Positions 37,458 to 53,377 of a DNA stretch of 64,000 bases are shown piece after piece. The translations under genes and the position numbers were made by a program. The notes under the pieces are model-generated. The model made no database searches. It was not told the origin of the DNA and saw only the letters and a program-made list of their open reading frames with translations. The number at the start of each line of letters is the position of its first letter. Within the stretch, counting starts at the first letter, position 1. The DNA comes from Escherichia phage UP19, in sequence record OX638288. The stretch is one strand, 5' to 3'.

Positions 37458-38273
37458 TTAAGAAATTCGTGATGCTGCGATTGCAGACAGGTCCGCGAAG
37501 GACAGGGTAGGCTTAGCGCCTTTTTCTTCAACTGCTTCCGAAATATAATTCAGTGCTGCAGCATCGTCTTCAGTTTTATTTATAGCGGCTTCGGTGATTG
37601 GTTTTTCAACGTCAGTCTGGCCTTTAACCATTTCAACGATAGCGCCAATTTTTTTACCAAATGCATCGGAATAATCCATGCCTTCTACCAGAGAACTAAC
37701 TTTTTCTTTCTGAGATTCAGTCAGGTCTTTAGTTGCTTCCATAACAGCTTGTTCACGCTGTACGTAATTAATATATGCGTCACGCTTGCCAACTTCTTCG
37801 AACAAACGAGCGGTTTCGGCTTTCTGTTCAGCCAATTCTTCTTCCATTTCAGAAACAACGTCTACTGCTTCTTCTGGAACAACCACGTTATGTTCAACAA
37901 ACAGTTCTTTCATACCCATCAACATGGATTCGAACAGTTCGGCTTTAATACCTTTATCAACAGCCAGCTGGTTTTCAGCCATCCATTCTTTAGCGACGTG
38001 GTCAAGGAAACGACCAGCAGCTTCTTGGATTTTCTTATCAGCTTTTTCTTCAGCTTCTTCTTTATTTTTCTCAACTTCTTCTTCCGCTTTTTCAGCGATT
38101 TTAGCGATGTGAGATTCCGCCAGTTTAACGGCGTGTTGCTTGACGGTAGCTTCGAATACAGTGCCGAAAGTTTCTTTTGCTTCCGGAGAAATATTAACTG
38201 ATTCGAAAATACTGTCAAGAGCAACGGAAGCATCAATATTCTGTGCTTCGGCGATCAGTTGTTCTTTAAGCAT
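37458..38273 (-). CDS. 22: prohead core scaffold protein gp22
   Basis: 271 aa (T4 gp22 is 269 aa); highly charged, Glu/Lys/Ala-rich helical protein. Confidence 0.9.
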   Translation of the reverse strand: MLKEQLIAEAQNIDASVALDSIFESVNISPEAKETFGTVFEATVKQHAVKLAESHIAKIAEKAEEEVEKNKEEAEEKADKKIQEAAGRFLDHVAKEWMAENQLAVDKGIKAELFESMLMGMKELFVEHNVVVPEEAVDVVSEMEEELAEQKAETARLFEEVGKRDAYINYVQREQAVMEATKDLTESQKEKVSSLVEGMDYSDAFGKKIGAIVEMVKGQTDVEKPITEAAINKTEDDAAALNYISEAVEEKGAKPTLSFADLSAIAASRIS

Positions 38274-48646: not shown

Positions 48647-49582
48647 TTATCCAATTAAAATAGGTGTTGGTGGGTCGAGCAAATCTAATTCTTCGCGAAG
48701 ACGTTCTTTTTCTAAACGAGCTTCTTCAATCAATCGAATGCCATCTACAGTGGTTCCGCCGGCTAATTGCATGCCTTGGTGTTTGGCTAAAATATTACCA
48801 TTGACCTCTTTAACTAATGCCGTAGCGTAATCTTTGACCCAACGGTTATTATACGCGCCATCTTGTAGTCCAAGGTCCTCACCAGCTCTCATTCCAGAAA
48901 TTCGACGCGCAGGATTGTCCCAAATAGCCCCAGGACTCCATTCATTTTCGTCACAGCCACCAGAAGCATATCCATATCCTGCTGTATTCCCGACCATGGA
49001 ATCAACGCCATTAAATGAACGGGTATAAACTTCAATTACAATAAAGTCGCCTTTAACAAAGTTGCCCATTACCTTCAATTGTTCAGTGGCATCATTATAC
49101 CAATAATCAGGCAGCGGAACCAAAAGGTCTTGCATCATAGAACGATATTGCATTAATTGTGTAAAATAACCAAGGTCAGCGCCGAAGGCATTAGGTCCAA
49201 AACTATTACATGAAGACCCAAGACCACCATTAATACCTGCCAAACCTAGTACAAAATCTGTAAACCATGGATAAGTTGCTTGCCCGTCCATAGATGTTAA
49301 AGAGCCAACGTTAGTTCTCAAAATTTGTGTTACTGCAAATATATTACGTCCTTTAAGGTCGAATACACCATTACGGAATTTTTCTTCATCGTCATGGCCA
49401 ATATAAAAAGCCTGATAACCTTTGTTATACCCGTTATAATGGTATTCGCCGTAGAGCTCTAGAGCACGCTGGATGCAATCATATACTTGGTCTGTAGTTA
49501 CTTCAATATTTGTAATCGGTGCACCCAGGCGGCGCAGGATAGCGTCCTTGAGTTGCTTAGGGTTAAATGATTCGCTTGCCAT
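48647..49582 (-). CDS. 13: neck protein gp13
   Basis: 311 aa (T4 gp13 is 309 aa). Confidence 0.9.
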
Positions 49583-49603
49583 ATTTTATTCCTCTAATAA
49601 CCG

Positions 49604-49611
49604 TATTTATA
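49604..49611 (-). promoter_or_regulatory. late promoter TATAAATA (minus strand) for gene 13
   Basis: Plus-strand TATTTATA 22 nt upstream of gene 13 ATG, SD GAGG in between. Confidence 0.6.
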
Positions 49612-49615
49612 GCAA

Positions 49616-49635
49616 AAAAGGGCCGAAGCCCTTTT
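49616..49635 (-). terminator. terminator hairpin AAAAGGGC-CGAA-GCCCTTTT after wac
   Basis: 8-bp stem with T/A runs on both sides. Confidence 0.6.
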
Positions 49636-49636
49636 A

Positions 49637-51841
49637 TTATGGTGCTGAGTTTAAAGTCACAAAATCAGACAATAATACCCATGCGTTATCAACCAGAACA
49701 TACGGGAGTCCGTCTGCAGCAGGAGCCACTGGTGGACGTTTAGCTAATTCTGTTTCTAAGGCCGTAATTTTACCTTCGGCAGCGGTTAAACGGATTCCTA
49801 AATCGGCAACTTTATCAGATTCAACTTTAACTGCGGCCAAACCTGTTTCAAGAGTACCAACTTTACCTTCGACCGTGCCTAAACGGGTATTGATTCCTGC
49901 TACTTTATCTGATTCGACTTTAACAGCAGCTAAACCTGTTTCAAGAGTACCAACTTCACCTTCAACAGCGGCTAAACCAGACTCAAGGGTAGTTATTTTA
50001 CCTTCAGCTGTGGTCACACGAGTTGTTAAAGGAGCTATTTTAGCGGTATCTAATTTAATATCAGTAATTTCGCCTTCATTAGCTGCTACTCGCCCGGTTA
50101 AAGTAACGATATCACCTTTATTCTTGGTTATATCGGCTTTAATAGGGGTTAATTGTGATTCTATAGAACTCACATCTAAAGCCAAAGCCGTAACATCAGA
50201 ATCGGTTGTATCCGTCTTGGTTTCCAATGCGGTTATTTTGCCATTAATAGTTACGTCACTTTCTTCCAAAGCAGTAATACGATTATCTTGCTCGGTGTCT
50301 TTGGATTTTAGCAAAACGACATCTGCTTTAATTTCTCCTACCGAAGTGTTTAAAGCACCAGTTCTAGTATCAAGAGAAGAAATGGAGGCGTCATTAGTAT
50401 CGACTCTGGAAGTTAAAGCGGTCACTTTACCATTGGTAACAACCAAATCGGCTTTAACAGTTTCTATTTCTGTGGAATTATTAACAACTTCAGCCCATGC
50501 CGCATTTCGACGTGCATAGAGTTTACCATCAGAAGGTGCATCACCCAATTTACCTTGCATCTGGGTTTCTAAAGAAGTAACCGCATTAATAAGACCACGT
50601 TCTTCTACGGTAGCTCCGTTAGGGTTCGTCCCGTCAACCTTATTTGTGAGCTTAAGCAAAGTACCTTTTATACCGGATTGGTTGTTACCAATTTCTACCT
50701 GAATATCCTGGATGGATGAGGTAGATTGGTTTGCTTGAATAATAACATCATTCAAACGCTTATTAATTGTGCCAGCAGCAGGAGACACTTCACTACCAAG
50801 GCGTCGATTAATATCGGAAACCTGGAAACGAAGCCCTTCACTAGAACTATTACCAACAACGGTTTTTAAATCATTTACATCAGTACGAAGTCCACTTAAA
50901 CGTCCATTAATAGATGCCGGTGCAGACTCAGAACCGATTTGAGTTTCTATAGAAGTTACTCTAGGTTTTAAATCATCGTTAACTGAATTTTCTAAGGTAA
51001 AGGTTTTGCTTTCTAAAGTAGTTACTCGGTCCTTTATAGGCATACCAGAGAAATCAATATTATCCTTAATTTCGTCAATAGCCGTATTAAAATTAACTGC
51101 AGCCGTTTCTAATACTGAAATTCGGGTATATGCAGGTTGTTTACCTACCGTATCAGAATGTGGTCCTAATTCGGCACGAATTTCATTTAGTTTAATACCT
51201 AATTGCCCAACATCAGAATCTTCATAGTTTCTTTCAAGGGTATCAATACGAAGACGGTGGTCCACCAATTCAGTGGTATTATCCATGATGCGGCGTTTTA
51301 TACCAGTGGCTTCGCTAGTTTCACCCGGAGGTAAAGGATTACCGTTTATATCCTGGTCCTCATAGTGACCAATTTCATTTTTAAGAAGAACAATATTTTC
51401 ACGTACAGTTAAATATGGGCCGTCTTGTAAAGGGTCATGGTATCCAACATCTTCACGCAAGAAATCAAAATTGGTTGTTAAGGTGTCCAATTTTTCTGTT
51501 GTATCTTCAGTGACTTTTTTAAGGTCTACAATATCAACACGGTTTTTCTCTATTTGTTGAATGATAGAAATATCTGTTGACATTTCTAAAGCGTCATTGA
51601 TATTATTAACGTTTTCTATAAGCTCATTAACTTTATCAGCAGTTTTTAAATCGTTGGCATCAAGAGCTTCTACGTTTTTCTGAACTCCTAAAGCAGCAGC
51701 GTTCAAATTACCTTCATTGCCGTATTTTGTTTTTGCTGCAGACATACAATCACCCTCGCGTATCCATTGGATACGCTTTTGAGGAGCATCAGGTACGCCG
51801 TCAACAAATGGTAACTCACTAAGTTCCAATTTGTTAATCAT
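49637..51841 (-). CDS. wac: fibritin (whisker/collar protein), expanded coiled-coil variant
   Basis: 734 aa (T4 fibritin is 487 aa); N-terminus ..LPFVDG.PDA.QKRIQWI..; heptad-rich rod with internal tandem repeat; C-terminal foldon-like ..DGLPYVLVDNAWVLLSDF.. Confidence 0.9.
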   Translation of the reverse strand: MINKLELSELPFVDGVPDAPQKRIQWIREGDCMSAAKTKYGNEGNLNAAALGVQKNVEALDANDLKTADKVNELIENVNNINDALEMSTDISIIQQIEKNRVDIVDLKKVTEDTTEKLDTLTTNFDFLREDVGYHDPLQDGPYLTVRENIVLLKNEIGHYEDQDINGNPLPPGETSEATGIKRRIMDNTTELVDHRLRIDTLERNYEDSDVGQLGIKLNEIRAELGPHSDTVGKQPAYTRISVLETAAVNFNTAIDEIKDNIDFSGMPIKDRVTTLESKTFTLENSVNDDLKPRVTSIETQIGSESAPASINGRLSGLRTDVNDLKTVVGNSSSEGLRFQVSDINRRLGSEVSPAAGTINKRLNDVIIQANQSTSSIQDIQVEIGNNQSGIKGTLLKLTNKVDGTNPNGATVEERGLINAVTSLETQMQGKLGDAPSDGKLYARRNAAWAEVVNNSTEIETVKADLVVTNGKVTALTSRVDTNDASISSLDTRTGALNTSVGEIKADVVLLKSKDTEQDNRITALEESDVTINGKITALETKTDTTDSDVTALALDVSSIESQLTPIKADITKNKGDIVTLTGRVAANEGEITDIKLDTAKIAPLTTRVTTAEGKITTLESGLAAVEGEVGTLETGLAAVKVESDKVAGINTRLGTVEGKVGTLETGLAAVKVESDKVADLGIRLTAAEGKITALETELAKRPPVAPAADGLPYVLVDNAWVLLSDFVTLNSAP

Positions 51842-51850
51842 TTTTTACCC

Positions 51851-53377
51851 TTATTCTACTTTAATAATAAAAAGAACGGACATTGTCCAAGGACGTGTTT
51901 CATTTGCAATAAGTCCTTCACTATTCAGTGTGGTATGGCCATCACGGTTCCAAGGTTCAGTGGTCTCAAACCCTTCGTTAGTATAATAACTACGGTTATC
52001 CCAGTCAAGTCCTTTACGAGTACCAACATACCCAGAGTTAGCGGTGTTACCAAAAGCACCATAGTTATCATGTTCACCAAAACCACCGGCGTGTTTATGA
52101 TAACGTAATGCTTGGGCTTGAACAGAAGATTGTGGGAACGAACCTACACCGTTACCTAAACGGGCTTTACCTTTACCGTCTTCTCCTCGGTTACCGGCAA
52201 TATGTGGGTTAACTTCACCTTCAGAATATCCACCAACCATGTTAGCACCGCGAGGATACAATCCACGGAAATCTGGAATAGCACCCCACCATCCCCAACG
52301 TCCGCCAACAGCATTTAAATATGCACCACCAGTATAAGTCCCACCTACACAAGCTCGCCATTTGCCCGGGATATTACCTTCATGTCCACCCCACATACAA
52401 ATAGTACCTACCGGAACGCTATCTGATAATTGGTCGTGGGTAACAACATCAACACCATTACGACGTAATGCGCCATTAACGTTTAAAGTACCCCATATTT
52501 CACCACCTGAAGTAGAAATAACGTTAGCATTATAAGCCAGGGCCGTATTACCATCGCCTTGTCCTACTGTAGTAGTTAAACGCACCAAGCCAATTCGTCC
52601 TGTATTACCTGTACGAGCTAGCAAAGATGCCGGAGTAACAGCGGCGGTATGGTCAGTACCATTAGATACCATATCCCAACCTGCGAGTTTAATAATACCA
52701 CTTCTGGCTTCGGTGGAAGTTAATGTGGCTAATCCGGCTGGAGAAATAGCAATACCTACCGAAAGACTTCCATTGCCAACTTCAGCATTAGTAGCTAAAC
52801 GAACCAAACCTTCATTTGTGGTCGTTGCCGTAGAATAAACCGGTAACGCTGCTGTGGCCGCACCAATTGCTTGAGATACTTTAAGTGGGGTCATTGCTGT
52901 GGTATCATCGGTACCAGCTAATGCAGCAGGCGTAGTTGAAATCTTGATAACGCCTGTAGTGTTCTCTGTTGATAAACGGTTCTCAAATGTATAATCCATT
53001 ACCGCTTTCAAAGAGGTTGCTACGATTGCAGCCTGGGGCTCTGTGCCTGCTATAGCTTCAGCATTAGTAGCATAACGGGTAATACCTACATAAGTTTCTG
53101 ATGCCTGAGTAGGAATATCTAAACGTGCTTTTAAAGTTGCAGGGGTCACTGCACTATAAGCATCCAACCCATCCATTACTTCTTGTGTTGTGGCAAGACG
53201 AATAATACCTTGGGATGTTTCTGTGGCTGAAGGAACATTACCTGTGACACCGATTAATGAAATAGCCGCCAATGCTTCTTGAACATTAGTAATATCAGGC
53301 GGGAAATTCGACCCAGTAGGGTCGAATGATTTGAATTCCGATTTATCACTAATGTGTTTTAGTGTGTTTGTTGACAT
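51851..53377 (-). CDS. 12: short tail fibre protein gp12
   Basis: 508 aa (T4 gp12 is 527 aa); ..FDPTGSNFPPDITNVQEA.. Confidence 0.9.
   Translation of the reverse strand: MSTNTLKHISDKSEFKSFDPTGSNFPPDITNVQEALAAISLIGVTGNVPSATETSQGIIRLATTQEVMDGLDAYSAVTPATLKARLDIPTQASETYVGITRYATNAEAIAGTEPQAAIVATSLKAVMDYTFENRLSTENTTGVIKISTTPAALAGTDDTTAMTPLKVSQAIGAATAALPVYSTATTTNEGLVRLATNAEVGNGSLSVGIAISPAGLATLTSTEARSGIIKLAGWDMVSNGTDHTAAVTPASLLARTGNTGRIGLVRLTTTVGQGDGNTALAYNANVISTSGGEIWGTLNVNGALRRNGVDVVTHDQLSDSVPVGTICMWGGHEGNIPGKWRACVGGTYTGGAYLNAVGGRWGWWGAIPDFRGLYPRGANMVGGYSEGEVNPHIAGNRGEDGKGKARLGNGVGSFPQSSVQAQALRYHKHAGGFGEHDNYGAFGNTANSGYVGTRKGLDWDNRSYYTNEGFETTEPWNRDGHTTLNSEGLIANETRPWTMSVLFIIKVE

Follow-up and report, generated by a model that had tools for sequence, protein, structure and literature searches.

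The 64,000-nucleotide stretch of Escherichia phage UP19 DNA analysed here (sequence record OX638288; hereafter the window) carries wac, the gene for the neck whisker protein fibritin, in which a tandem 93-nucleotide (nt) duplication had been noticed. The gene was identified from the list of open reading frames (ORFs) and by homology as an ORF of 734 amino acids (aa) plus a stop codon, located at positions 49637–51841 of the minus strand, on which all parts of wac described below are encoded. It is situated between a gp12-like ORF (51851–53377, minus strand) and a gp13-like ORF (48647–49582, minus strand), and genes annotated as gp12 and gp13 flank wac likewise in phages JS98, NC-G, JS10, MX01 and VR5. 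Fibritins are defined by a conserved N-terminal neck-attachment domain of about 50 aa, a long segmented coiled-coil shaft, a C-terminal foldon, and the gene order gene 12–wac–gene 13. The window gene indeed occupies this place next to the genes for the short tail fibre (gene 12) and the neck (gene 13), and aa 5–68 of its product align with the T4 fibritin fragments 1ox3 and 2ibl (E 1.2e-13). The encoded protein shows 100% identity with CAI9865876.1, the fibritin neck whisker of Escherichia phage UP19, and the DNA is 93% identical to the genes annotated as wac in JS98 and NC-G, and 98% identical to that of Esco_phi_B-01 over its first 1887 nt. The window sequence is that of a Dhakavirus, i.e., a JS98-like T-even phage. 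The first-pass annotation had already named this 734-aa ORF wac and estimated it to be about 250 aa longer than the T4 gene product, and both statements hold, the T4 fibritin (PDB 2bsg_A) and the T2 wac product being 487 aa long and the window protein exceeding them by 247 aa.

To locate the additional residues, the protein was compared with PDB entries using phmmer. Residues 5–428 (positions 50558–51829), comprising the N-terminal neck-attachment domain and the segmented coiled-coil shaft, matched T4 residues 4–430 in a single colinear stretch (2bsg_A/3j2o_A, E 2.5e-73). An internal foldon-like motif follows at aa 433–455 (GDAPSDGKLYARRNAAWAEVVNN; 50477–50545), recognized by its DG..Y......W signature, by AlphaFold2 and from the published description of such fibritins (PMC3797505); aa 433–453 of this second foldon-like motif of the chain read GDAPSDGKLYARRNAAWAEVV, comparable to the T4 foldon. 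This internal motif marks the end of the T4-colinear part and accounts for the Pfam Fibritin_C match in the middle of the protein (aa 371–454, 100.5 bits). At the C-terminus, the terminal foldon (aa 702–728, RPPVAPAADGLPYVLVDNAWVLLSDFV; 49658–49738) aligns with T4 foldon residues 457–484 and is predicted to form a hairpin. The first motif, at aa 438, reads DGKLYARRNAAW and the second, at aa 710, DGLPYVLVDNAW, and the DG..Y......W signature was found twice per protein in 18 of the 18 Dhakavirus-type (JS98-type) fibritins examined. The region between the two foldons begins with a proximal spacer (aa 456–597; 50051–50476), helical in the AlphaFold2 model and in unbroken heptad register according to our register model, and ends with the final coiled-coil heptads ahead of the terminal foldon (aa 690–701, GKITALETELAK; 49739–49774), which were delimited by the register model and module parsing and align with the last coiled-coil segment of T4 fibritin.

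The AlphaFold2 prediction, run on the monomer of aa 371–734 with a shallow alignment over the spacer (mean predicted local distance difference test score, pLDDT, 77; predicted template modelling score, pTM, 0.29), placed beta-hairpins at aa 442–445/448–451 and aa 714–717/720–723, that is, at both foldon motifs. Helices were predicted for aa 455–592 (pLDDT above 90) and aa 599–700, with pLDDT values of 85–90 through the repeats, and the break between them (aa 593–598) probably reflects the monomer folding back on itself. The order of elements in the window fibritin is, consequently, a neck-binding domain and T4-colinear shaft (aa 5–428), an internal foldon-like hairpin (aa 433–453), a 246-aa helical spacer (aa 456–701) and a terminal foldon (aa 702–728). 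Since T4 fibritin is colinear only up to aa 428, the Fibritin_C match is internal and a foldon motif occurs at both sites, the approximately 250 extra residues are a post-foldon extension made of the 246-aa coiled-coil spacer and a second foldon. The duplication, to which the first-pass annotation had linked the extra length, adds just 31 aa, the rest being spacer and second foldon, and it resides in the post-foldon spacer and not, as had been suggested, in the T4-like coiled-coil rod.

Tandem Repeats Finder (TRF) detected a single array in wac (49809–49977; period 93, 1.8 copies, 86% matches, 0 indels, score 268), which is the top-scoring tandem repeat of the whole window. Alignment and module parsing, together with TRF, resolved it into two 31-aa units, unit 1 spanning aa 628–658 (GEVGTLETGLAAVK VESDKVAGINTRLGTVE; 49868–49960) and unit 2 spanning aa 659–689 (GKVGTLETGLAAVK VESDKVADLGIRLTAAE; 49775–49867). 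A 19-aa core, VGTLETGLAAVKVESDKVA, is present in both, at aa 630–648 (49898–49954) and aa 661–679 (49805–49861), which agrees to within 5 nt with the repeat positions first reported. The complete units are identical at 73 of 93 nt (78.5%) and 24 of 31 aa, and their 57-nt cores at 50 nt, with seven synonymous and no non-synonymous codon differences; hence, the units are similar rather than nearly identical, as they had been called. As a consequence of this divergence at synonymous sites, the longest exact run shared by the two copies is merely 25 nt (49932–49956 and 49839–49863).

The first-pass annotation had pointed out that convergent heptad similarity would undermine its claim of a tandem duplication. 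The entire spacer is compositionally biased towards T, L, E, A, V, G and K, and weaker 42-nt similarities (64–71% identity) are found elsewhere in wac, so two coiled-coil units could be imagined to look alike without any duplication. To evaluate this explanation, the codons of either the whole ORF or the spacer alone were shuffled (n = 200), and the best 93-nt self-match never exceeded 54/93 (mean 47, standard deviation 1.5–1.8), compared with the 73/93 observed. Moreover, the repeat spacing is exactly in phase without indels, and relatives carry the same units at copy numbers from one to five. Convergence was rejected on the basis of these shuffles, and we assign it practically no probability. 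Given that composition-preserving shuffling does not approach the observed identity over the unit, the 93-nt repeat is a real duplication, in agreement with the TRF array and the unit identity.

Other repetitive features were noted in or near this region. Antisense to wac runs a 348-aa ORF (49473–50519, plus strand), rich in S, T, A, V and P and itself repetitive (TLSDSTLTAAKPVSRVPT twice), which in all likelihood does not represent a gene but arises from the repetitive coiled-coil codons, whose reverse complement contains few stops. Weak tandem repeats were detected at 52032–52087, within the gp12-like (short-tail-fibre) ORF (period 27, 2.1 copies; also present in JS10 gene 12), and at 38043–38083 (period 21, 1.9 copies).

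Parsing of 16 relatives revealed that the distal third of the spacer is composed of two recurrent modules, a 14-aa module A of two heptads (GKITTLETGLAAVK) and a 17-aa module B, in which two heptads are accompanied by a register shift of three residues (VESDKVAGINTRLGTAE). In the window allele the order is P-A-AB-AB, where P (aa 598–613, DTAKIAPLTTRVTTAE; 50003–50050) is a B-type lead-in bearing the first +3 shift, the following extra A module (aa 614–627, GKITTLESGLAAVE; 49961–50002) contributes 14 aa, or two heptads, and the AB-AB pair is the 93-nt duplication. The register model showed no discontinuity from aa 456 to 601 and then +3 shifts at aa 601/602, 643/644 and 674/675, one for each B-type module and three altogether. 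The 31-aa unit thus equals 4 × 7 + 3 residues and carries a 3-residue shift, at variance with the earlier description of a duplication in heptad register. Because the shift lies inside the unit, the gain or loss of a unit recreates an identical local structure.

The lengths of related fibritins were then surveyed by tblastn against phage genomes, as a protein word search with aa 425–734 was swamped by coiled-coil words. Fibritin length ranges from 515 to 827 aa among the relatives, and all of this variation maps to the spacer. The single-unit form P-AB (689 aa) occurs in PSD2002 and dhaeg, P-AB-AB (720 aa) in MX01, ABTNLsp5, ABTNLS3 and dhabil, P-AB-AB-B (737 aa) in EcoM_005, and P-AB-AB-AB (751 aa) in JS98 and NC-G. 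More intricate combinations of A and B with a 7-aa piece account for the fibritins of VR5 and EcWhh-1 (768 aa), CLBP2 (772 aa), JS10 and IME08 (799 aa) and Esco_phi_B-01 (827 aa), and nearly all of the spacer is lost in JS98-C3 (515 aa) and KIT01 (529 aa). The match spans obtained by tblastn for over 60 phage records are in line with this series, and about 85 double-foldon fibritins were recovered by this search. The window allele (734 aa) is distinguished from the 720-aa alleles by the single extra A module, whose DNA is 98% identical to the corresponding module of CLBP2 and Esco_phi_B-01. TRF applied to the wac genes of relatives returned periods of 93, 51 and 21 nt; it detected no repeat in T2 wac or in PSD2002, whose allele has a single unit. 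The proposal that repeat number alters whisker protein length is supported by a 515–827-aa series built from A and B modules. Furthermore, both N-terminal lineages (MINKLELS... and MIDKLSIK...) include 689-, 720- and 799-aa forms, indicating that the architecture of the array is decoupled from the ancestry of the shaft.

This distribution also bears on the age of the duplication. No tandem repeat in the window scores higher than this array, and a 734-aa wac is found in no other record of the phage collection, as might be expected if the 93-nt duplication were a recent slippage product specific to this isolate. However, the AB-AB pair is also present in MX01, ABTNLsp5, ABTNLS3, dhabil, JS98, NC-G, JS10, IME08 and others, and the difference between 734 aa and the common 720 aa amounts to that one A module shared with CLBP2 and Esco_phi_B-01. 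In addition, the two copies differ at 20 of 93 nt, including the seven synonymous changes in an otherwise identical core, and every module of the window is closer to its positional orthologues in other phages (92–100% DNA identity) than to its paralogue (67–90%). A recent, isolate-specific origin was rejected on the wide occurrence of AB-AB and on these orthologue and paralogue identities, and we consider it very improbable. Since orthologue identity exceeds paralogue identity and synonymous differences have accumulated in the core, the AB-AB duplication is older than the divergence of the sampled Dhakavirus isolates; the pair is not peculiar to the window isolate but common to most Dhakavirus fibritins.

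The shaft and the spacer have distinct affinities. The window shaft is 99% identical to those of JS98 and NC-G, its proximal spacer just 77%, whereas with CLBP2, dhabil and dhaeg the shaft is 69% and the spacer 93% identical. The gene is thus a mosaic with a recombination junction near the internal foldon, and the spacer and terminal foldon move as a cassette.

A sign of repeat-mediated change is visible in the comparison with the 827-aa allele of Esco_phi_B-01. The first 1856 nt show 20 mismatches, after which the window allele lacks 279 nt (93 aa, seven modules), and 17 differences are found in the downstream 3′ 369 nt. In the longer allele, the 279-nt block is bounded at both ends by a 21-nt direct repeat, GAAGGTAAAATAACTACCCTT, of which the window keeps one copy. 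Such a footprint is that expected of unequal recombination or slippage, and this indel between alleles that are 99% identical lends support to the view of the repeat as a recombination and slippage hotspot. A clean block with a 21-nt direct repeat is, nevertheless, exactly what a mis-join leaves, and no other record of the phage collection has this length of 734 aa, so P-A-AB-AB might instead be an assembly artefact, in which a longer array like that of Esco_phi_B-01 was collapsed or wrongly joined. Several observations argue against this explanation. An identical 734-aa protein is recorded in the NCBI nr database (phage UP19) and in one Logan assembly, although possibly from the same reads; typical reads and k-mers are long compared with the 21-nt repeat; the many other lengths seen among natural alleles indicate that such events do happen; and the 17 differences in the 3′ 369 nt imply that the window allele is not the Esco_phi_B-01 allele plus a collapse. 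An artefact is, in our judgement, improbable.

Taken together, these findings make it highly probable that the 93-nt repeat belongs to a polymorphic module array in the coiled-coil spacer of a double-foldon fibritin of the JS98 type. As the comparison of alleles suggests, whole modules would be gained or lost in frame through unequal recombination or replication slippage between short shared stretches of identity, giving rise to the 689-, 720-, 734-, 737-, 751-, 768-, 772-, 799- and 827-aa alleles and, after near-complete loss of the spacer, to those of 515–529 aa. The rise of a coiled coil is approximately 0.15 nm per residue; at this value, each 31-aa unit would lengthen an extended trimeric coiled coil by about 4.6 nm, and the spacer as a whole would measure some 36 nm. 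Trimerization would be nucleated by the terminal foldon, as the literature shows for the T4 and JS98 fibritins, and the T4-like shaft would be locked again by the internal foldon, so that the spacer between them could tolerate insertions and deletions.

Some points weigh against this interpretation. No second 734-aa allele was found by tblastn in the phage collection (over 60 records), copy numbers of such repeats in short-read phage assemblies could contain errors, and the 279-nt event may have been either a deletion or an insertion. The heptad assignment derives from a simple scoring model of our own and not from a calibrated predictor. Likewise, the AlphaFold2 helix, which runs unbroken across the +3 shifts and breaks at aa 593–598, is weak evidence, coming from a monomer with a low pTM and a shallow spacer alignment.

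Within the module-array interpretation, the function of the spacer could also be viewed differently. The spacer and distal foldon might be a separately evolving functional cassette, for instance a second binding or sensing tip, with the internal foldon docking the long tail fibre. Consistent with this idea, the internal foldon is near the T4 position (aa 433–453 versus T4 457–483), the approximately ten-fold variation in spacer length among close relatives is difficult to reconcile with a fixed docking geometry at the distal tip, and the spacer and second foldon are exchanged as a block, as the identities to JS98 and to CLBP2, dhabil and dhaeg given above illustrate. On the other hand, it is the terminal foldon that has stayed closer to T4 (WVLLS.F is kept), the spacer lacks a recognizable binding domain, and the literature treats the JS98 and T4 types as one functional variant. 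We therefore regard a separate functional cassette as rather unlikely. Equally tentative is its fuller form, in which the spacer would be a free-evolving, horizontally exchanged cassette between two autonomous trimerization clamps, the internal foldon maintaining whisker geometry and fibre docking and the distal part serving a second role, e.g., in environmental or surface sensing. If true, the double clamp would explain the free tolerance of in-frame module gain and loss.

The duplicated array is an ordinary, old and genus-wide trait of a published fibritin type, in a protein already deposited in GenBank, and matters little in a wider context. What the analysis adds is modest, namely the grammar of the modules, the mosaicism of the cassette and the indel flanked by direct repeats. 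All length classes encountered among Dhakavirus fibritins are explained by this grammar (A, 14 aa; B, 17 aa with a +3 shift), and the distal coiled coil changes in steps of 7, 14, 17 or 31 aa, which would correspond to about 1–4.6 nm. Such a natural series of graded-length trimeric coiled-coil fibres bracketed by foldons could serve foldon-based protein engineering, and the wac array could be used as a typing marker for Dhakavirus isolates, with the caution that the repeat region is prone to assembly error.

Beyond the fibritins, the P-A segment (aa 594–645, about 49907–50062, minus strand) matched the trimeric coiled coil of the P22 tail needle gp26, with 20 of 52 residues identical (E ~1e-10), gp26 residues ~90–152 aligning with the window segment and the motif RVTTAEG.I being common to both. 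The likeness is confined to about 50 coiled-coil residues of a different protein that occupies a different position in the virion, and may reflect either homology or compositional convergence of coiled coils. Membership of the gp26-type tail needles was rejected, as the match does not extend to the N-terminal gp10-binding tip, the triple beta-helix or the inverted coiled-coil domains and the remainder of the protein is fibritin. A trimeric coiled coil in the spacer is plausible and would be consistent with the gp26 likeness. In PDB chain 4LIN, an engineered lengthened P22 needle fibre, the gp26-like segment occurs twice and produced two matches in one chain; this fibre was presumably lengthened by duplication of its helical core, and the window repeat would follow the same principle.

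Fibre-like proteins of 312–458 aa (P0011–P0014; L024 6001–7125) were also found in metagenomic phages unrelated to T4, whose contig encodes TerL, an S78 protease, an HK97-type capsid protein and a portal protein. Their layout comprises a foldon-like motif, a repetitive coiled coil with AEGKITTAEGEIDAL-type heptads, a second foldon-like motif and a globular C-terminal domain, and a neighbouring 693-aa protein (L024 2921–5002) shows the same faint Fibritin_C and DUF7310 matches. Because phages unrelated to T4 encode such a layout, the foldon/coiled coil/foldon cassette is not confined to T4-like whiskers.

Among the fibritins themselves, the T4 protein (487 aa; PDB 2bsg, 3j2o, 1aa0, 1avy) shares with the window protein a homologous N-terminal domain, shaft and C-terminal foldon. 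Unlike T4 and T2 fibritins, which possess one foldon and neither a spacer nor a tandem repeat in wac, the window protein has an internal foldon-like motif right after the position of T4 residue 430, followed by 279 more residues. The Gaprivervirus fibritins (VR26, TH44, MN01, VR7) are likewise of the double-foldon type, 528–789 aa long, with a spacer varying by tandem repeats, but their repeat unit differs, being of 72 nt and 24 aa (21 + 3) and consisting of GEITAIK plus LDTAKIAPLTTRVTSSE; its counterpart in the window allele is the P segment, which is present there once. The 72-nt unit was observed in 3 to more than 5 copies in the wac genes of VR26, TH44, MN01 and VR7 and of Yersinia phage P8.

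The closest known system is the JS98-type fibritin, whose published description includes a pair of T4-like foldon motifs and a coiled-coil spacer that varies in length (Letarov & Krisch 2013, PMC3797505). The same report mentions variable spacer length without the 14/17/31-aa module grammar, and provides biochemical evidence that the JS98 fibritin trimerizes via its foldon motifs alone, without a chaperone; literature searches on phage UP19 and on fibritin duplication or length returned nothing further. Both defining features were found in the window protein, namely two T4-like foldon motifs and an inter-foldon coiled-coil spacer whose length varies among isolates. The window wac shares with JS98 and JS98-C3 the gp12–wac–gp13 order, the two foldon motifs and the isolate-variable spacer, and differs in having its own module count and a length of 734 aa, the JS98 and JS98-C3 proteins being 751 and 515 aa long, respectively. 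Relative to JS98, the window allele is a mosaic in which a JS98-like shaft is joined to a spacer of the CLBP2/Esco_phi_B-01 kind.

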